Origin: Escherichia coli
Lineage (GTDB): Bacteria; Pseudomonadota; Gammaproteobacteria; Enterobacterales; Enterobacteriaceae
Assembly: GCF_050920415.1 (NCBI RefSeq)
Contig: NZ_CP169309.1
Length of the DNA stretch: 64,000 bases
Strand: one strand, 5' to 3'
Of the stretch, positions 6,345 through 31,994 are shown one piece after another. The notes beneath the pieces are model-generated. The model searched no databases, had not been told where the DNA came from, and saw only the letters and a program-made list of their open reading frames with translations. Every line of letters starts with the position of its first letter. Position 1 is the stretch's first letter. Made by a program: the position numbers and the translations under genes.

Positions 6345-6420
6345 TGGTGGGTCGTGCAGGATTCGAACCTGCGACCAATTGATTAAAAGTCAACTGCTCT
6401 ACCAACTGAGCTAACGACCC
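6345..6420 (-). tRNA. lysZ: tRNA-Lys (anticodon UUU)
   Basis: Identical 76-nt tRNA-Lys copy. Confidence 0.93.
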
Positions 6421-6925: not shown

Positions 6926-7060
6926 GATACTACGCTGGATACTACAACTAACTAGGTTAGTGGTGGGTCGTGCAGGATGACTCGACTTCGTCTCGCCCTT
7001 CGGGCCGTTGCTGACGCAACGTTATCCTTCACGTTTTACTACCGCTTCCACCTTAGCGAT

Positions 7061-7136
7061 TGGTGGGTCGTGCAGGATTCGAACCTGCGACCAATTGATT
7101 AAAAGTCAACTGCTCTACCAACTGAGCTAACGACCC
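7061..7136 (-). tRNA. lysT: tRNA-Lys (anticodon UUU)
   Basis: First gene of the operon; identical 76-nt tRNA-Lys. Confidence 0.93.
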
Positions 7137-7300
7137 ACTTTTTCGTTGCTTTCGGTTTGTTTGATATCCCGTGGCAACGGCGGCATATATTACTGATTTC
7201 AGACTTGAGCGCAACAAAAATTTCGATGTAGATCACTCAACTGCTTATGATTCGCACGACACGACCAGAAATAATGCGACTTCTGGTCGTGTGTTATGCA

Positions 7301-8092
7301 TTACATCGCGTTCAGACGTTTTTGCGCCTGTTTTGCGCCATCAGTACCAGGGTATTTACTGATAACCTGCTGGTATACGGCTTTCGCTTTTGCGGTGTCA
7401 CCTTTCTCCTGCATGATGACGCCGACTTTAAACATCGCATCTGCAGCCTTCGGTGACTTCGGATAGTTTTTCACTACCGAAGCAAAATAATACGCCGCAT
7501 CATCTTTTTTACCCTTGTTGTAGTTTAACTGACCCAGCCAATAATTGGCGTTTGGCAGGTAAGTTGAATCAGGGTAATTTTTGATGAAATTCTGAAATGC
7601 CACCATTGCGTCATCCTGGCGGGATTTATCCTGCACCAGCGCAATAGCTGCATTGTAATCCGTGTTTGCATCACCGCTTTTCACCGGCGCGCCAGCATTC
7701 GCAGTACCAGCATCAGCTGTCGGCGTCGTTGATGCCGCCGCACCGCTTTGATCGCCGCTGGTTGATTGCGCCGCTGCACCACCGCTGCTGAGGCTATCGA
7801 TCTGCAACAGGATCTGCTTTTGCCGCTCCACGACCTGATTCAGTTGATACTGATTTTCCTGAATCTGACCACGCAGGGAATCAATATCGGATTGATTATC
7901 AGAGAGTTGTTGCTGGAGTTGGGTTAAAAGCTGGCTGTGAGCATTAGAAATACGCTCAAGTTGAGTGACGCGGTCTTCGACCGAGCCTGAGCCGACACTA
8001 CTGATTGGTGCCTGAGCAAAAGCGGCCCAGGGGGCCGCTATACCAACCAGTAACGACAGACTCAATAGTTGATGTCTGAAGTTACTGCTCAT
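7301..8092 (-). CDS. cpoB: Cell-division coordinator CpoB (YbgF), TPR protein
   Basis: 263-aa protein with signal peptide, coiled-coil/Q-rich region and C-terminal TPR repeats; last gene of tol-pal. Confidence 0.9.
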   Translation of the reverse strand: MSSNFRHQLLSLSLLVGIAAPWAAFAQAPISSVGSGSVEDRVTQLERISNAHSQLLTQLQQQLSDNQSDIDSLRGQIQENQYQLNQVVERQKQILLQIDSLSSGGAAAQSTSGDQSGAAASTTPTADAGTANAGAPVKSGDANTDYNAAIALVQDKSRQDDAMVAFQNFIKNYPDSTYLPNANYWLGQLNYNKGKKDDAAYYFASVVKNYPKSPKAADAMFKVGVIMQEKGDTAKAKAVYQQVISKYPGTDGAKQAQKRLNAM

Positions 8093-14663: not shown

Positions 14664-16232
14664 TTAGCGTGCCGGCTGAGTAGTCGTGGAAGACTGCTCA
14701 AAGTGATAGCGACCGGTTTTCAGGCTGCTTGGGCCGAGGCGTGCAAACTTGAACATCAAGAACAATTCTGCCACCAGGAACAGGGTATACAGGCCACAAA
14801 TCAGCACCATCGAGAAGATGAGGTCGCCTGCGGTCAGTGACGAGTTCGCTACAGCTGTCGGCAGCACTTCACCGATAGCCCAAGGTTGGCGACCATATTC
14901 AGCCACGAACCAGCCCGCTTCTACAGCAATCCACGGCAGCGGAATACCGTACAGTGCGGCGCGCAGCAGCCATTTTTTCTCGCCAATACGGTTGCGGATG
15001 ACACTCCAGAAAGAGAGCGCGATGATTGCCAGCAGCAGGAAGCCACACGCCACCATGATACGGAACGCGAAGTACAGCGGCGCTACACGTGGAATGGAGT
15101 CTTTGGTTGCCTGTTGAATCTGCGCTTCAGTCGCATCCGCCACGTTTGGCGTGTAGCGTTTCAGCAACAGACCGTAACCGAGGTCTTTCTTCATGCTATT
15201 GAACTGGTCACGAACCGCCTGGTCAGTAGACCCAGAACGCAGTTGCTCGAGCAGAGAGTACGCCTTCATCCCGTTACGGATGCGTTCTTCATGCTGCACC
15301 ATCAGCTCTTTCAGGCCGATAACCGGGGTATCCACGGAACGCGTTGCAATGATGCCCAGCGCGTAAGGGATCTGGATCGCAAATTTGTTCGTCTCCTCTT
15401 CCTGATCAGGAATGCCGAACAGAGTAAAGGCAGCAGGTGCAGGTTGCGTTTCCCACTCGGCTTCAATAGCAGCCAGTTTGGTTTTCTGCACGTCGCCCAT
15501 TTCATAACCAGATTCATCACCCAGAACAATAACAGACAGAACGGCAGCCATACCGAAGCTGGCAGCGATAGCAAAGGAGCGTTTAGCGAAGGCGAAGTCA
15601 CGACCTTTCAGCATATACCATGCGCTGATACCGAGGATGAACATCGCGCCAGTCACATAACCAGACGCTACCGTGTGAACGAATTTCACCTGAGCAACCG
15701 GGTTAAGCACCAGCTCGGAGAAGCTCACCATCTCCATACGCATAGTTTCAAAGTTGAAATCGGACGCGATTGGGTTTTGCATCCAGCCGTTCGCAACCAG
15801 AATCCACAGCGCGGACAGGTTTGAACCGAGCGCCACCAGCCAGGTGACACACATATGCTGAACTTTACCCAGACGATCCCAACCGAAGAAGAACAGACCT
15901 ACAAAGGTGGATTCGAGGAAGAAGGCCATCAGACCTTCGATTGCCAGCGGCGCGCCGAAAATATCCCCTACATAGTGGGAATAGTAAGACCAGTTAGTCC
16001 CGAACTGGAACTCCATGGTCAGACCGGTTGCCACACCCAGAGCGAAGTTGATACCAAACAACTTGCCCCAGAACTTGGTCATATCTTTATAAATCTGTTT
16101 GCCGGAAAGGACGTAGACCGTTTCCATAATGGCCAGCAGGAACGCCATACCGAGCGTCAGTGGCACAAAAAGGAAGTGGTACATCGCGGTCAAGGCAAAC
16201 TGTAAGCGCGACAGTTCGACTATATCTAACAT
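14664..16232 (-). CDS. cydA: Cytochrome bd-I ubiquinol oxidase subunit I
   Basis: Match to CydA; start at the second Met of the track ORF ([15 protein letters not shown]...). Confidence 0.95.
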
Positions 16233-16568
16233 CATGACTCCTTGCTCATCGCATGAAGACTCCGAGAGTGAACCCCGTTAGAAAGGGTCACACGCATGCC
16301 CCAATACAAAATTATTTGCTCGCCTCTATCGCTGCCTTTTCCTCAAAAGTGGAAAAGACAATGATAAAAAGTTACAAATATGTTAATGAATAAACCAAAT
16401 TGATCCCGTAATTATATTACGCCGCAAAATCCTTACAATAAACAGGTTTTTATTGAGCAAATTTGCATTTTTCGACAGTGATCAATTTATAGCGAAATTG
16501 TCACGACCTCACCAATTTGATCTACGACAATTTATCGTGTTTTGCAGATTTTTTTCAAGAATTAAAAA

Positions 16569-16582
16569 TTGATTTATATCAA
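16569..16582. promoter_or_regulatory. FNR/CRP-family half-site palindrome in the cydA upstream region
   Basis: Perfect TTGAT-TTAT-ATCAA about 335 bp upstream of the cydA start, in a roughly 800-bp AT-rich leader/promoter region. Confidence 0.55.
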
Positions 16583-17035
16583 AACCAATCAAATATGTTA
16601 ATTATGTATAAACCATAGACCATTGGTAATTTTATTGTTAATTTATTGTGAAATATTTATGTAACACAATTATTACAATAAAAAGACATAGATAAAAAAC
16701 CAGTGTTTTATTTAACAGAATCGCCTTATCAACTTTTTATAATACCAATTGATTAGAGTAGCCAATTTGTTGCTATTTTACATAACATATTTTTATCAAA
16801 GTTAATTGATTGTTGCCTTTATGAGCATCGCCGTAAGACCGCCATGTTATTGTTTCATTTGTAATAATCACCAATAAGTATCGATGAGAGAGATATCGCT
16901 TAACAGAGGCGACTGTGTCTGCATGAACACAGGCAACTTTCGCCTGATAAACGAAAAATGAGCGATTTTTGCAAGTTAGTTTTTCTATAGCTGGGTACGC
17001 TGAGCGCCTCGCTTGATTACAATGAGGTTGCTGCC

Positions 17036-17980
17036 ATGGGTCTTGATAATATAGGTTCTGTTGTCAATCGCTTCTCTGGTTGGCCATCAAATGATCCTCT
17101 AAAAACAGATAACGAATCAATGACATCACCCGTGACTGTGCAGGTAATAAAGTTGATTGCCGCCATCCTTGACCCACATCGGATAGTCGTTGGTATCGAT
17201 ACACTCTATACAACGCAGCGCAAAACATTTACCTCAGAGGGTCAACAACTCATTGAATCAGCATTGAAAACACTTAATGTGATGAATTTAAATAACCTGG
17301 AAACAGATCGCGATGAGGAGGGTAACTATCTGGCTTTTGGATATAACGTTGACACTCCTGACAGAATAACCGTTTCTGCTTATAATGAAAAAAAACCTTT
17401 CTGTTATGGCCAATGTCTTTTAATACAGGATGAAGAACCAGATTTATTTAACCTGGTAAAAATTAAAACCTTTGAAGCCAGGCATAATTATGTTTCTAAA
17501 TTGATGAGCGATCCGGAATTTATGTTTAAATTCAGTTATAGCGCCCAACAAAATAGATTAGAACCTCATCTTCTGGTTCCCACTTATTTCCCTCTGAAAA
17601 CAAACCAACCGGTTACGCTAGAGGATTTACTGATACTTTATCGTTTCTTTAAAATGAATGGCGATTTTAATATATTAACATCAGATGAATACATGAGTAT
17701 CATGACACCTCTGATGAAGTGTGAGCGTAGTGTCCACGACCATAACAGGTATGTGACGGGCAAAGATGCTCTTCTTCTGGACAATCCTCCGTCTGGTAAC
17801 CAGATATATTTCCATATTTCCCCTGACGAATCAGCAACACTTGTCCTTTATTTTTCAGACAATAACCTTGAATCCTTCGTCTTTGAAAATGATATTCCGA
17901 GCCAGTATCGACATTTCAAAATGTTTACCAATTTAGCACTAGTTATTGATCAGTTAACCGACGCCAATCAAATACTTTAA
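17036..17980 (+). CDS. Hypothetical protein, 314 aa, acidic, no recognised domain
   Basis: Clean ORF with GAGG RBS 8 nt upstream of the ATG; strongly AT-rich codon usage (N/K/I/F/Y-rich) unlike the flanking core genes; no signal peptide or TM segment evident. Confidence 0.6.
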   Translation: MGLDNIGSVVNRFSGWPSNDPLKTDNESMTSPVTVQVIKLIAAILDPHRIVVGIDTLYTTQRKTFTSEGQQLIESALKTLNVMNLNNLETDRDEEGNYLAFGYNVDTPDRITVSAYNEKKPFCYGQCLLIQDEEPDLFNLVKIKTFEARHNYVSKLMSDPEFMFKFSYSAQQNRLEPHLLVPTYFPLKTNQPVTLEDLLILYRFFKMNGDFNILTSDEYMSIMTPLMKCERSVHDHNRYVTGKDALLLDNPPSGNQIYFHISPDESATLVLYFSDNNLESFVFENDIPSQYRHFKMFTNLALVIDQLTDANQIL

Positions 17981-18059
17981 TTTTCTATACAGCCCTGTGT
18001 AAAATATTGCTAAACAGTGCCCGGGGTTGATTTTTATTCCTCACGGTGATATTTAAATC

Positions 18060-18482
18060 ATGACACCATCTCAGCTCTCTTTTAATACTCTTCCTGTCAA
18101 TGCAACATGCACTTCAGAGATAACAGTAAACACACAAAAATTCTCTGACATCCTCTACTCAGTGGGGTATTCCCTAAAGGATCTGGCTTATCTGAGCAGA
18201 TGTCTGGCATCATTACACCCAACACTCGCCAAAAACATTTATGAAACGGAAAATCTCAGCGATCAAAAATTACTTTATATAGATTGCCGTAGTACAAATG
18301 AAATCAAGATAAATATATTTTTGGGTCAAAAAAGAGAAGAATTAATCGAAATTAGTTCTGATACAGTCATTTTTTCGATACTGTCTTCATTGATTGACTC
18401 AGCTATTTCTGAACATCGACATCAAATCACCGTTAATGATTCAAATAATTCTGAACTATTTTATGAGGATTATACTGATTAA
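18060..18482 (+). CDS. Hypothetical small acidic protein, 140 aa
   Basis: ORF 80 bp downstream of the previous gene, same strand and same AT-rich composition; about 21 acidic versus 10 basic residues; Ser/Thr/Asn-rich N-terminus. Confidence 0.5.
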   Translation: MTPSQLSFNTLPVNATCTSEITVNTQKFSDILYSVGYSLKDLAYLSRCLASLHPTLAKNIYETENLSDQKLLYIDCRSTNEIKINIFLGQKREELIEISSDTVIFSILSSLIDSAISEHRHQITVNDSNNSELFYEDYTD

Positions 18483-19024
18483 ATCCACTCTGTGCGAACC
18501 TGTCCTGCATTTATGCCAGAAGTATTAGAATCTTTGCTTAACGTTACTCATACAGTAGCACCTTCATGTGTCTCTCTTTTTTACGAACAATCAAAAGAAC
18601 TAACAAGGGGCATAATTCGTATAAATTATTAACCATTTGTTATATTCAACATTTTTTTACATTAAGCAGAGATGAATTGCAGTGAAATTCAAGTTAAATT
18701 TTACGAAATGTATTACTCATGGCTAAAAAATCTTCCCAAAATGCAAATTAGAAGTTGATCACAATTATCTCAATCCATCAAATCAAGATAATTTTAAAAA
18801 TTTAACATCAATGACAGCGGTTGGCATAACACACTGAATTAAAATGAAAATTTAAAAAACAATTTTTAAACAATCATTTCCCGAAAGACATTTTGAAAAT
18901 AGATCAATTGCAACATTACGGTCAGATAAAGACACTCCTCTGATATTAAACCTGTGCCGTTATGAACGGCCATAAATACGACGTGTGTAACTTAATTTAC
19001 TCTCTGTCTTACAAAGGATTACCC

Positions 19025-19474
19025 ATGAAGAAAGCAACACTTGTGATTGGCGTTATTGGCGCGGACTGCCATGCAGTAGGCAATAAAGTTCTGGACCGCG
19101 TTTTTAGCAACCATGACTTCAGAGTCATTAATCTGGGCGTAATGGTCAGCCAGGACGAATATATTGATGCTGCCATTGAAACTGGCGCTGACGCGATTGT
19201 CGTCTCCTCTATCTATGGGCATGGCGATATCGACTGTCTGGGCATGCGCGAACGCTGCATTGAGCGTGGCTTGGGGGACATCCTGCTCTATGTGGGCGGC
19301 AACCTGGTGGTCGGAAAACATGACTTCGCTGACGTGGAAACCAAGTTCAAAGAGATGGGATTTGATCGCGTCTTCGCCCCAAGTCATGACTTAGAAGATG
19401 TCTGCCAGCTGATGGCCCACGATATCAACCAACGTCATGGCGTTGAAACTTGCATTCTTGAAGAGGCAATCTGA
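19025..19474 (+). CDS. glmS: Glutamate mutase sigma (S) subunit, B12-binding (methylaspartate mutase small subunit)
   Basis: [24 protein letters not shown]... carries the DxHxxG cobalamin-binding motif and resembles clostridial GlmS/MutS end to end; symbol is glutamate-mutase nomenclature, not GlcN-6-P synthase. The track ORF is extended 21 codons upstream. Confidence 0.85.
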
Positions 19475-23570: not shown

Positions 23571-24941
23571 ATGGCTCGTTCTTTTAAAGTCTTATCGCCA
23601 ACGGCAATCCTCGGGTATGGATTCCCGGAAGAGAGCTTCCGCAAAGCGATGGCAGAATCGCCCGATCTGATCGCCGTTGATGCAGGATCTTCCGATCCAG
23701 GTCCCCACTACCTCGGGGCAGGCAAACCGTTTACCGATCGCGCAGGGGTCAAGCGCGATCTGCGCTATATGATCACCGCAGGCGTGCAAAATAATATACC
23801 GGTGGTGATCGGAACGGCCGGCGGTTCTGGTGCCGCTCCACACCTGGAGTGGTGCCGAGAAATAATTCATGAGATTGCCCGGGAAGAGCGCCTCGCGTTC
23901 TCGATGGCGCTGATCCCGGCAGACGTTGACAAAGCCATCGTCCACCAGGCGCTGGATAACGGCAAAATCACGGCGCTGGATTTTGTCCCGCCGTTAACCC
24001 ACGACTCGATTGACGAAAGTACGTATATCGTCGCGCAAATGGGCATCGAACCCTTCCAGCGGGCGCTGAAAGAAGGAGCGCAAGTGGTGCTGGGCGGGCG
24101 CGCTTACGACCCGGCCTGCTTTGCTGCGCTTCCGATCATGCAAGGCTTTGATGAAGGTCTGGCACTGCATTGTGGGAAAATCCTTGAATGTGCGGCAATC
24201 GCTGCAACACCCGGCTCAGGCTCTGACTGTGCGATGGGCATCATTGATGACAACGGCTTTACGCTGAAGACGTTTAATCCGAAGCGTAAATTTACCGAAA
24301 CGTCAGCTGCTGCACACACACTGTATGAGAAATCCGATCCCTACTTTCTGCCAGGACCTGGCGGCGTGCTAAACCTGAAAGGTTGCACATTTAAAGCGAT
24401 CAATGATGGCGAAGTGTACGTCAGCGGTTCTAAGCATGAAGAAACGCCCTATGCCCTGAAACTGGAAGGTGCGCGGCGGGTGGGTTTCCGCTGTTTGACC
24501 ATCGCCGGAACGCGCGACCCGATCATGATCGCCGGGATCGATAACATCATCGATGAAGTCAAAACCAGCGTTTCGCGTAATCTGTCCTTAGACGATGACA
24601 GCATTCGCATCAATTTCCACCTGTACGGCAAAAACGGGGTGATGGGTGACCATGAACCGATGCAAACTGCCGGGCATGAGCTGGGGATTGTCCTTGATGT
24701 AGTTGCACCGACCCAGGAAATTGCCAACAGCGTTTGCTCGCTGGTGCGCTCTACCATGCTGCACTACGGCTATGAAAACCGCATCGCTACCGCAGGCAAC
24801 CTGGCGTTCCCGTTCTCCCCTTCTGATATCCAGGGCGGGCCGGTATACGAATTTTCCATATATCACCTGATTGAAGCCAACGACGCTCTGCGTTTTGATT
24901 TCCATATTGAACAGGTGACGCCAGAAGGAGTTCAGGCATGA
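23571..24941 (+). CDS. Uncharacterised protein, probably DUF1446 (AtuA-like) family
   Basis: 456-aa soluble protein inside the operon, 4 bp after mal; family assignment is from memory of the AtuA-like family and is tentative. Confidence 0.5.
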   Translation: MARSFKVLSPTAILGYGFPEESFRKAMAESPDLIAVDAGSSDPGPHYLGAGKPFTDRAGVKRDLRYMITAGVQNNIPVVIGTAGGSGAAPHLEWCREIIHEIAREERLAFSMALIPADVDKAIVHQALDNGKITALDFVPPLTHDSIDESTYIVAQMGIEPFQRALKEGAQVVLGGRAYDPACFAALPIMQGFDEGLALHCGKILECAAIAATPGSGSDCAMGIIDDNGFTLKTFNPKRKFTETSAAAHTLYEKSDPYFLPGPGGVLNLKGCTFKAINDGEVYVSGSKHEETPYALKLEGARRVGFRCLTIAGTRDPIMIAGIDNIIDEVKTSVSRNLSLDDDSIRINFHLYGKNGVMGDHEPMQTAGHELGIVLDVVAPTQEIANSVCSLVRSTMLHYGYENRIATAGNLAFPFSPSDIQGGPVYEFSIYHLIEANDALRFDFHIEQVTPEGVQA

Positions 24942-25255
24942 AACAGTCAATTGTCTCACTGGCGCAAGTCATTCGTTCGAAAAATGCCGGACCTTACGAA
25001 CTGGTTTTAGATATTTTATTTAAAACGAAAGAAAACTATGAGCGAGTAAAATCATCAGGGCAATTAACCCCAGAACTGATTGCGCGCTTATATCATGTTG
25101 AACCTGACTTTATTCATCGTATTGTCTGGTTTGATCCTTCTAACGCAGTAAAAATTGTCATGCCACGAGATATTATCTCCGGGAATGTAGGTGACAATGA
25201 TGTCTATGGCGCACAGCAACATGCACCTTTATTAAATATGAGTTTCGATTTGTAA
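24938..25255 (+). CDS. Small uncharacterised protein, probably DUF4387-like partner of the preceding gene
   Basis: 105-aa ORF overlapping the upstream stop by 4 nt (ATGA coupling). Confidence 0.5.
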   Translation: MKQSIVSLAQVIRSKNAGPYELVLDILFKTKENYERVKSSGQLTPELIARLYHVEPDFIHRIVWFDPSNAVKIVMPRDIISGNVGDNDVYGAQQHAPLLNMSFDL

Positions 25256-29071: not shown

Positions 29072-29105
29072 CTGCGCCTGGCATCCCGCCAGGCGCAGGT
29101 TTTAC
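29072..29105. terminator. Bidirectional hairpin terminator between the cobA-like and LysR genes
   Basis: ctgcgcctgg-catcccg-ccaggcgcag with flanking T/A runs; lies between convergent stop codons. Confidence 0.6.
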
Positions 29106-30007
29106 ATCTCCTGCGGTACGACCGATTTCGCCAGCAACCATTCACGAAATTGCTGCAAGTGCGGAGAGTCAGACTTCTCTTCCTGCCACGTCATAATAAA
29201 ACGATTACCGGTACGAATAGGCACATCACAGGGGATCACCATATCGCCACTATCCAAATCATGTTGAATAGCGAACCGTGGTAACAGCGCCACGCCGAGA
29301 TTAGAGCGCACGGCGGCAATCAGCATTGAAAGCAAATCGAAACGTGGTCCGTTATTGACCAGCGGACTGCTAACGCCAGATAAAGCAAACCACTCTTCCC
29401 AGCCAGTAATACGGGTGCTTTGATGCAGAAGTGGTAACTCAGTAAGCAGTTCTGCCACTGACAGTTTTTGATCGGACATTGCAAGCAAACTGCCGCTGCA
29501 TACCGGCAAAATCTCCTCTTCAAAGAGATATTCTACTTCCGCCCAGGGCGCGCAAAAATTTTCGCGCATAATGACAGCATCGTACTCCCGATTAAGAAAA
29601 TCGCCGTTATTAGCTAAAGAATGAATATTAACAATAATATCGGGATGTAACTTTGTGAATTCATGTAAATTTGGGATTAACCAGTGGGTACTAAACGTAG
29701 GATTAACGGCAAGTTCAATAACCTGAACCGTAGGCTGCCAGGTCATAATCGTATTGGTATCGCGTTCCAGCTTATTTAATGTTTCTTTTACTATCCCCAG
29801 GTAATACTTCCCTGCATCATTAAGAAAAATGCGTTTTTTAGAGTGTGAAAATAACGGAGTATGTAAAAATTCCTCCAGCGCACTTACTTGTCTGAATACA
29901 GCACTTTGGGTTAACGCTAACTCCTCAGCCGCTCTGGTATAACTTTCATGTCGTGCGACGACCTCAAAAGTCACCAGCAGCTCCGTTTTAGGTATTTTTC
30001 CTCGCAT
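29102..30007 (-). CDS. LysR-family transcriptional regulator
   Basis: N-terminal helix-turn-helix (YTRAAEELALTQSAVFRQV) plus co-inducer-binding domain; start chosen at the internal Met (MRGKIP...), the track ORF extends to 30037. Confidence 0.8.
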   Translation of the reverse strand: MRGKIPKTELLVTFEVVARHESYTRAAEELALTQSAVFRQVSALEEFLHTPLFSHSKKRIFLNDAGKYYLGIVKETLNKLERDTNTIMTWQPTVQVIELAVNPTFSTHWLIPNLHEFTKLHPDIIVNIHSLANNGDFLNREYDAVIMRENFCAPWAEVEYLFEEEILPVCSGSLLAMSDQKLSVAELLTELPLLHQSTRITGWEEWFALSGVSSPLVNNGPRFDLLSMLIAAVRSNLGVALLPRFAIQHDLDSGDMVIPCDVPIRTGNRFIMTWQEEKSDSPHLQQFREWLLAKSVVPQEM

Positions 30008-30596
30008 AATGCCGTCCGTGAAAAAATAACAACTCAAAAATTATTTTATAAAAAACAGTAGCACTAATGAATATCATAATTCAAATAAACAAACCAGTCA
30101 GCTATATGTCTAACCAGGAAAATAAAGTGACAATAATCCTAAAACAGGAATTTCACCTCAGTTATCCGCATGCAATACTTTAAAGCTATTATTGCAAGAA
30201 TATTATTCATATACATGAATATACTCTAAATAAGTCAAGTTGCAGGAAGGGAACAAATAATGAATTTCCAGAAGCTTACATAAGTAAGTGACCTGGGTGA
30301 GCGAACATCGATGCAGCACATGCAACTTGAATTATGACAAGTATACAATGATAAATTTATATACCCTATGTTATATATTATCTATGTCCGGTTAAATTGA
30401 ATGAGTCATAGCCTTAAAAGACTTCACAAAAGATAATTCCTCTTTAACAATAAGCCAGATTTACCACTTGTAAAACTTGCTATCGCCACATACACTACGC
30501 GCGTTTTCTTTCCCTTTTGCTGGCTGCTGACCGGAAAGACAAAATTACCCTCGCAATACAGGGGGTTGTTTAACGTCTATATTTCAGGACAGCGTT

Positions 30597-31994
30597 ATGC
30601 ATCATCTTTTAAGGCTTGATAAAGCCTTTCTGCGCAAAGGGATCCAACTTTCCCGTGCCAACAATATTGTTTCATTATGTCGTCCATCAGGAGCCAGTGC
30701 CCGCGTACTGCTGCCGGACGAACTGCCGCTGGAAGAAAAAGCAGTGACACAACTGCTTGATTTTGCAGAAGTGAAGATACCAGGCCATCCAGGTTACGTA
30801 CGCCAGACGTGCGCGACGCCAGATTTTCATCCCGGCAATGGCGTCCCCGTTGGCGCGGTGGTGGCCTCAACGCCGGATTTAGTCATTCCCGCCGCCATCG
30901 GCACCGATATTTCTTGTGGCATGCGGCTGCTGACGACCGGATTAACACTTGAGCAAGCCGAAGCGCATAAAGACGTCATCGCTCAGCGGTTAACGCAAGT
31001 GCTACTGCAAAATGAGCGCGATGTTCCGTTATCCGCACAGGCGTTCACCGCGCTTTTTGATGGCGGACCGGCAGATTGCGTGTCGACCTTGCCATCAGCA
31101 GGTCTCTGGACACGCACGAATATCCCCCGAATGGTACAAGAGATTGACCGCTGCATTGGGCTTAACGAGCATAACAGTCATTCGCGTTATGCCCCACCCG
31201 CCCTGCTGGCAACGGACCGCGCATTACTCCGCGATCCTTGTCTGGGTACGCCGGGTTCAGGTAATCATTTTATTGAACTTCAGGTCGTTGATAGCGTGGT
31301 TGATCGCCATGTAGCCTGGCAACAAGGGCTGAAAACAGGCGATATTGTGGTGATGATCCACAGTGGATCGCGAGATGTTGGCTTTTACGTCGGAAGACGC
31401 TGGATGGATCGCGCCCGTGCTGAATGGCCCACCGGACATAAACATCCACAAAGCGGGTTATATGGTCTGGCAGGCGGACTGGCGGAGGAATATCTACAAG
31501 CGATAGGAATGGCGGCGCGTTACGCGTGGTTAAATCGCGTGACAATTGCCGAAATGGTGCGCGTATGTCTTGCCAATCTCTTTCATCAGGACAATTCGCA
31601 TCTGGTGGTGGATGTGCCACATAACATCATCCTTCGCGAGCATGAAATGAATATTCATCGCAAAGGCGCAACACCGGCACGAGTGGGCAATCTGGCGTTA
31701 ATCCCTGGTTCAATGGGCGATTATTCGTGGCTTGCGGTAGGTTGCGGCAACCCGGAGTGGCTGTGGTCATGCAGTCACGGAGCAGGACGCAGCCAGCGTC
31801 GGCAGGCCATGCGCTCACGCGCGACTGAAGAGTCAACGCTGCCGTGGCAATGCGTCACATTGCGCGAAGAACGACGTCTTGAAGAAGCGCCAGCGGCTTA
31901 TAAAGATATTGGTCCGGTTATCGAAGCTCAACAAGAAGCCGGATTAATTCAGCCAGCGGTCAGATTTCGACCGTGGTTAACGTTTAAAGCATAA
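30597..31994 (+). CDS. RtcB-family RNA ligase paralogue (3'-phosphate/5'-OH ligase)
   Basis: 465 aa with the RtcB signature blocks IPAAIGTDISCGMRL, GSGNHFIEL, MIHSGSRDVG, IPGSMGDYS and CSHGAGR; about 30-aa N-terminal extension relative to K-12 RtcB. Confidence 0.8.
   Translation: MHHLLRLDKAFLRKGIQLSRANNIVSLCRPSGASARVLLPDELPLEEKAVTQLLDFAEVKIPGHPGYVRQTCATPDFHPGNGVPVGAVVASTPDLVIPAAIGTDISCGMRLLTTGLTLEQAEAHKDVIAQRLTQVLLQNERDVPLSAQAFTALFDGGPADCVSTLPSAGLWTRTNIPRMVQEIDRCIGLNEHNSHSRYAPPALLATDRALLRDPCLGTPGSGNHFIELQVVDSVVDRHVAWQQGLKTGDIVVMIHSGSRDVGFYVGRRWMDRARAEWPTGHKHPQSGLYGLAGGLAEEYLQAIGMAARYAWLNRVTIAEMVRVCLANLFHQDNSHLVVDVPHNIILREHEMNIHRKGATPARVGNLALIPGSMGDYSWLAVGCGNPEWLWSCSHGAGRSQRRQAMRSRATEESTLPWQCVTLREERRLEEAPAAYKDIGPVIEAQQEAGLIQPAVRFRPWLTFKA

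Follow-up and report, generated by a model that had tools for sequence, protein, structure and literature searches.

A pair of AT-rich genes at the edge of the Escherichia coli glutamate-fermentation island is probably genus-restricted, as old as the island, and dispensable

We investigated two adjacent open reading frames, ORF1 and ORF2, that lie in an AT-rich block, with cydA on one side and the glm (methylaspartate mutase) operon on the other, in a 64,000-nt stretch of Escherichia coli DNA, called the window throughout. Taken as a whole, the data make it fairly likely that these are genus-restricted orphan genes with an age linked to that of the neighboring island, and that they are silent, weakly constrained, and dispensable, with silencing that would be of the H-NS type. 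Thousands of genomes already list these genes as hypothetical proteins. To this we add that the pair is Escherichia-only in our searches and island-aged, that it is silent in published EDL933 RNA-seq data and fast-evolving at replacement sites, and that its two members are separable. The layout of the block is as follows.

16236..17035: cydA–ORF1 divergent intergenic region, with GC content down to 26%
17036..17980, + strand: ORF1, ATG start, 314 aa, 36 kDa, acidic, and probably soluble; WP_000522008.1; Sakai ortholog ECs_0767
17981..18059: ORF1–ORF2 spacer, 79 nt
18060..18482, + strand: ORF2, ATG start, 140 aa, 15.9 kDa, acidic, with a Ser/Thr/Asn-rich N-terminus; WP_072157015.1; Sakai ortholog ECs_0766
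18483..19024: ORF2–glmS spacer, 542 bp, AT-rich at ~29% GC; the annotated glmS start is 19025

In E. coli MFDS1022581, whose chromosome is 100% identical over the region, and in O157:H7 Sakai, whose ECs0766/ECs0767 interval spans 853.7–856.0 kb, both ORFs carry the annotation hypothetical protein. A preliminary description of the window reported two same-strand ORFs of 314 and 140 aa, which agrees with the ORF list, and placed them 80 bp apart, which we correct to 79 nt. It also noted a strong AT-rich contrast with the cyd genes and the glm operon. This is borne out by the composition profile, as GC content is 0.26–0.43 in every 400-nt segment from 16200 to 19199 versus 0.51–0.57 in cydAB and 0.49–0.58 in the glm operon. 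The GC content is 0.38 for ORF1 and 0.34 for ORF2, and the continuous AT-rich tract, including the cydAB upstream region, is 2.7 kb long. The gene order is cydA (divergent), ORF1, ORF2, glmS-glmL-glmE, methylaspartate ammonia-lyase, AtuA, DUF4387, a transporter, and fumarase. The pair forms the AT-rich, cydA-proximal edge of the glm island. Homology to other genome types continues from the cydA side and ends at ~16607 for K-12-type genomes and at ~16872 for O16:H6 (B2-type) genomes. Therefore, on its cydA side the AT-rich block consists of the cydAB upstream region common to other forms of the locus, and only the ~160–430 bp nearest ORF1 in the cydA–ORF1 intergenic region are confined to genomes having ORF1.

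A six-frame ORF list of the block contains nothing longer than 56 aa in any frame beyond ORF1 and ORF2, and an Rfam search of 16000–19300 returned no RNA family at E ≤ 1. Repeats flanking the block are short AT-rich chance pairs only, with no insertion scars, and a promoter and terminator scan gave counts at the shuffled expectation. The 79-nt spacer has no terminator-like hairpin, the sole terminator-like site being inside ORF1 at 17758, and co-transcription of the two genes is plausible from this arrangement. The larger sucD–cydA interval is a variable hotspot with at least four alternative contents, listed below. The cydA-side breakpoints (~16607 and ~16872) differ among these forms.

Form 1: mngR-mngA-mngB, in K-12
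Form 2: a single TPR protein, in an O16:H6 strain
Form 3: the 15-kb ORF1-ORF2-glm island, in the window strain and O157
Form 4: ORF1 and a 258-aa protein without a family match, in E. albertii lineage L003 (an E. albertii-like contig, SRR11658232)

We estimated synonymous (dS) and replacement (dN) divergence of both genes by the Nei-Gojobori method, using the O157-type allele and E. albertii for comparison.

ORF1 versus O157-type allele: dS 0.18, dN 0.068, dN/dS 0.37, Fisher p 8e-5
ORF2 versus O157-type allele: dS 0.24, dN 0.084, dN/dS 0.35, Fisher p 2e-3
ORF1 versus E. albertii: dS 0.60, dN 0.228, dN/dS 0.38, Fisher p 2e-9
ORF2 versus E. albertii: dS 0.70, dN 0.320, dN/dS 0.46, Fisher p 6e-4

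The dN/dS of both genes, 0.35–0.46 (0.37–0.45 for ORF1), is significantly below 1 (Fisher p 2e-3 to 2e-9). At the local base composition, with a stop probability of 0.067 per codon, the chance of an open frame is ~3e-10 for 314 codons and ~6e-5 for 140 codons. The two E. coli alleles and four E. albertii loci (L003–L006) all have an ORF1 of 314 codons, free of indels. A GAGG at 17024–17027 is the ribosome-binding site of ORF1, 8 nt 5′ of the ATG, and ORF2 has only a weak GGTGA upstream, 10 nt before its start. From the dN/dS below 1, the low chance of an open frame, the absence of indels in ORF1, and the ribosome-binding site, we conclude that ORF1 and ORF2 are genuine protein-coding genes. 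Both are under weak purifying selection, and the dN/dS of ~0.36 between the E. coli alleles shows that some function is still selected.

These values also bear on whether the ORFs are non-functional relics, meaning open frames from which E. coli has ceased to make a useful protein or has never made one. Such relics would be expected to show near-zero transcription, as is seen in 11 conditions, and the repeated pseudogenization in sister lineages, the high dN/dS relative to neighbors, and the very low AlphaFold confidence all point in the same direction. However, dN/dS is significantly below 1 also between the two E. coli alleles (0.37, p = 8e-5; 0.35, p = 2e-3), ORF1 stays free of indels across a dS of ~0.6, ~58 of 60 sampled genomes have both ORFs annotated as intact, and a 314-codon open frame in 36% GC DNA has a chance of 3e-10. 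We consider it unlikely that the pair is a relic.

Both proteins are acidic, with a pI of 4.84 for ORF1 and 4.65 for ORF2, and both have polar N-termini; 17 of the first 30 residues of ORF2 are S/T/N/P/Q. Neither has a segment of transmembrane strength (maximum Kyte-Doolittle 19-residue means of 1.35 for ORF1 and 1.39 for ORF2) or a signal-peptide-like N-terminus. The preliminary description was accurate on all of these points, including the acidity, the Ser/Thr/Asn-rich start of ORF2, and the absence of a recognizable motif, and it left the function unassigned, as do our searches of Pfam, NCBIfam, PADLOC, PHROGs, and the PDB. Both proteins are probably soluble, alpha/beta, and cytoplasmic, without a recognizable catalytic, DNA-binding, secretion, or membrane module.

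The profile searches that had been suggested for the pair (Pfam, PDB, and defense HMMs) gave no match for either protein. Pfam left both unmatched even at E ≤ 10, NCBIfam and PHROGs matched neither, and PADLOC (PADLOC-DB v2) returned 0 families for both at E ≤ 1. A profile search of PDB sequences found no match for ORF1 or ORF2, with a best E of 1.3 for ORF2. The best family-library scores for both proteins (E = 0.09–2) are at chance level. An exhaustive hmmsearch with the ORF1 profile against 1.84 billion representatives gave 14 matches, all of them Escherichia fragments of the same protein, and a word-indexed homolog search found ORF1 in Escherichia only. Homolog searches for ORF2 returned only Escherichia/Shigella entries. 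A scan of GTDB, at one genome per species, detected ORF1 in four records, namely E. albertii, Escherichia sp. MOD1-EC7003, and two MAG contigs. Both genes thus appear, across these searches, to be orphan genes restricted to the genus Escherichia (including Shigella).

The two MAG contigs are labeled “Collinsella sp.” (JAIJJM010000209.1; L010) and “Citrobacter sp.” (DXKH01000067.1; L011). Their ORF1 and ORF2, 81–88% identical to the window, are of the common E. coli allele, and the contigs have 87–88% identity to the E. coli protein; most likely, these are E. coli contigs mis-binned into Collinsella and Citrobacter MAGs. No copy of the pair was found among phage records. “Plasmid” matches were limited to PLSDB entries NZ_CP141089.1 (4.94 Mb), NZ_CP134663.1 (4.90 Mb), and CP088669.1 (0.73 Mb), and we rejected plasmid carriage, as these three records are chromosome-sized or chromosomal fragments that are mislabeled.

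AlphaFold2 models built on shallow alignments have a mean pLDDT of 42.8 for ORF1 and 39.7 for ORF2, which is too poor for fold evidence, and either protein may yet prove to have a known fold. A Foldseek search of the PDB with these low-confidence models gave nothing at E ≤ 0.001, with TM scores ≤ 0.25, and was set aside as meaningless. The same models show a similar helix-helix-three-strand-helix order in both proteins. Paralogy of ORF1 and ORF2 was considered by comparing ORF2 with the halves of ORF1 and was rejected (hhalign probability 0.8%, BLASTP E = 4.1). ORF1 could be the founder of a family and fold with no relatives among ~15 billion predicted proteins, retained by basal E. coli phylogroups and E. 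albertii for a role tied to a particular host or niche. Such a role might be, for example, that of a LEE or ETT2 type III substrate with ORF2 as its dedicated helper, or that of a conditional modulator at the adjacent cydAB/glm regulatory region. We hold this to be a long shot.

The preliminary description had suggested that the block was acquired separately from, and probably more recently than, its surroundings. Fast evolution is confined to the block: nucleotide identity within E. coli is 84–93% for the block and 95–99% for the flanks, and against E. albertii it is 62–78% for the block and 81–98% for the flanks. The dS of cydA, cydB, and the glm genes is 0.06–0.17 versus the O157 type, and versus E. 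albertii it is 0.70–1.12 for the glm genes and lower, 0.24–0.28, for cydA and cydB. The dN/dS of these neighbors is 0.006–0.19, so that the values for ORF1 and ORF2 are roughly 2- to 60-fold higher. Because dS is comparable and dN is raised, the 3- to 4-fold excess divergence of the block reflects amino-acid replacements and not a different history. Furthermore, E. albertii and Escherichia sp. MOD1-EC7003, a cryptic lineage, share the order cydA-ORF1-ORF2-glmS, and the pair and glmL-glmE are each present in 1135 complete E. coli genomes, out of 5426. The dS values like those of the glm genes, the colinearity, and the equal genome counts indicate that the pair is of the same age as the glm island and not a later acquisition, contrary to the earlier suggestion.

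Of 60 carriers picked to spread across the set, 58 have both ORFs annotated as intact hypothetical proteins; the two exceptions are an IS903B insertion and a partial match covering 71% of the query. Carriers span O157:H7, O145, O78, O139:H1, and O7:K1 CE10, as well as ESBL, wastewater, and animal isolates. The pair falls into two deep allele classes; the window allele (≥95% match) is rare, in 18 complete genomes, and a ~90.5%-identical allele is in ~1100. Strain TW10509, from a cryptic clade, has a protein with 95% identity to the ORF2 of the window.

The pair decays repeatedly outside E. coli. In two E. albertii loci (L004 and L006), codon 36 of ORF2 is a stop and ORF1 is intact, and the ORF2 match in a third (L005) has the same extent and identity, as judged from the untranslated similarity match. 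Only a 31-aa remnant of ORF2 is left in E. albertii L003 and in the type strain (L012). ORF1 is intact in L003 despite this deletion, and also without any glm island; in the type strain, it is frameshifted near residue 180. In MOD1-EC7003 (L013), ORF1 is degraded by many stops and an ERIC element, recognized by an ERIC2 primer motif at 6387–6408 of that locus with one mismatch and zero chance expectation, and ORF2 is cut to its 47 C-terminal residues, beside intact glmS, glmL, and glmE. A second ERIC-like translated stretch is present in the ORF2 remnant of this locus (ORF 7058–7318, − strand). There is also a fragment in Shigella dysenteriae. Since ORF1 survives the loss of ORF2 and both decay beside intact glm genes, we conclude that both genes are dispensable and do not make up an obligate two-component system. 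The co-occurrence that had been proposed as a check on the pair thus holds within E. coli (1135 genomes) and fails outside it, where the pair breaks up.

This pattern also allows us to evaluate whether the pair is an accessory or regulatory factor that serves glutamate fermentation by the island, acting, for instance, in its expression or in B12-enzyme handling. The ORFs are on the same strand as glmS and immediately 5′ of it, the pair and glmL-glmE have equal counts in E. coli (1135 and 1135), and the two sets of genes are of the same evolutionary age, all as would be expected of such a factor. However, E. albertii L003 keeps ORF1 without the glm island, MOD1-EC7003 has both ORFs destroyed with glmS, glmL, and glmE intact, and ORF2 and glmS lie 542 bp apart, across an AT-rich gap. 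A LysR-type regulator, an adenosyltransferase, and GlmL are encoded in the island itself, and selection constrains the pair far less than the glm genes. We therefore consider it improbable that the pair acts in glutamate fermentation.

In published RNA-seq data from EDL933, RPKM is 0–12 over the interval in 11 conditions. The EDL933 interval is annotated with four Z tags that are not matched one-to-one to ORF1 and ORF2, and the low signal holds for the interval as a whole. The O157 interval is essentially silent in these 11 conditions. H-NS-bound genes have been reported to show a higher dN and a similar dS (Higashi et al., PMC4720273), in a study of strains SE15, SE11, and K-12; ORF1 and ORF2 are not among the genes in its supplements. 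A literature search for H-NS ChIP or hns-mutant data covering ECs0766/0767 found none. The AT-richness, the near-zero transcription, and the raised dN with an ordinary dS fit H-NS-type silencing, and the AT-rich tract is probably subject to such xenogeneic silencing. The preliminary description had named three findings that would count against its reading of the block, namely homology, non-expression, and lack of conservation as a pair. Two of them were found, as the interval is silent in the 11 EDL933 conditions and the pair is not conserved outside E. coli, while homology was not.

The pair most closely resembles the taxonomically restricted orphan genes that sit where enterobacterial genomic islands have AT-rich edges and that are typically silenced by H-NS, as this pair probably is. 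It shares with them a GC content of 34–38% versus ~52% in the flanks, a lack of homologs beyond the genus, very low transcription, and patchy loss among lineages, and it shares with the H-NS-bound genes of PMC4720273 a raised dN and an ordinary dS. Unlike most such orphans, ORF1 is unusually long (314 aa) and has been free of indels since before the E. coli–E. albertii split.

The acidity of both proteins and the Ser/Thr/Asn-rich start of ORF2 had led the preliminary description to suggest, as one possibility, a secreted effector and its chaperone. ORF1 could be a type III secretion substrate with ORF2 as its small acidic chaperone, or both could be substrates, of LEE or ETT2. Both O157:H7 and E. 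albertii carry T3SSs, and the genes are found in both. As in a T3SS effector with a class I chaperone of the CesT/SycE type, a 16-kDa acidic protein (15.9 kDa, pI 4.65) is encoded beside a larger acidic one, in AT-rich DNA and with polar N-termini (17 of 30 residues S/T/N/P/Q in ORF2). These features are non-specific, as AT-rich coding alone enriches Asn, Ser, and Thr. Unlike CesT/SycE chaperone–effector pairs, ORF1 and ORF2 match no chaperone or effector family, as the Pfam search at E ≤ 10 included both the CesT-type chaperone and the effector families and no PDB sequence matched. Nor are they co-conserved, since E. albertii keeps ORF1 where ORF2 is nonsense-mutated or deleted. The carriers also include many LEE-negative strains, among them O7:K1 CE10 and O139:H1. 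We find a secreted pair still harder to credit than the alternatives considered above.

The least probable alternative, which was also raised previously, is a toxin-immunity, toxin-antitoxin, or anti-phage defense pair in the sucD–cydA hotspot, which has in its favor a same-strand cassette of two adjacent genes at a locus with lineage-variable content, but against it the lack of any PADLOC match at E ≤ 1 or of a nuclease, ATPase, toxin, antitoxin, immunity, or other known defense domain, a 79-nt gap in place of an overlap, vertical inheritance with a metabolic island at a clock-like dS and without turnover, neighbors that are metabolic and not defense or secretion genes, an interval that is almost untranscribed, and the loss of the smaller gene, ORF2, alone with ORF1 intact, which is not what an antitoxin or immunity gene would show if it were essential. 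Neither of these two earlier suggestions, which had been offered as speculation, gains support from our results.

We therefore return to the reading of ORF1 and ORF2 as old, silenced orphan genes. The two genes would have entered or arisen with the glutamate-fermentation (glm/methylaspartate) island before the E. coli–E. albertii split and would have been inherited vertically with it thereafter. H-NS-type silencing of the 2.7-kb tract would keep them off in laboratory and simple environmental conditions. Any activity would then be a conditional, niche-specific accessory role in which ORF1 takes the lead and ORF2 is an optional partner.

The analysis clears the pair as neither a recent module nor a recognizable defense, toxin, or effector system, and the findings point to no new mechanism. 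The block offers an example of an AT-rich island edge at which dS equals that of the neighbors and dN/dS is ~2- to 60-fold higher, in keeping with the pattern published for H-NS-bound genes. A 314-aa orphan that is free of indels across a species split is also a reasonable target for work on orphan-gene origin and function in O157:H7.

Two further observations concern the rest of the island. A 465-aa ORF at 30597–31994 (+ strand) lies between the LysR-type regulator of the island (29102–30037, − strand) and sucD. It matches RtcB-family RNA ligase models over residues ~213–464 only, at 206 bits versus a curated cut-off of 407. In Sakai, the corresponding stretch from sucD to ECs_0755 is no more than a 667-bp gap, and the island of the window strain thus carries an extra, divergent RtcB-like gene. 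Additionally, the AtuA-family and DUF4387 genes at 23571–25255 of the window, 3′ of the methylaspartate ammonia-lyase gene, correspond to Sakai ECs_0760 and ECs_0759. These are named “3-methylaspartate ammonia-lyase” and “acyl-CoA synthetase,” respectively, in Sakai, and both product names look wrong.
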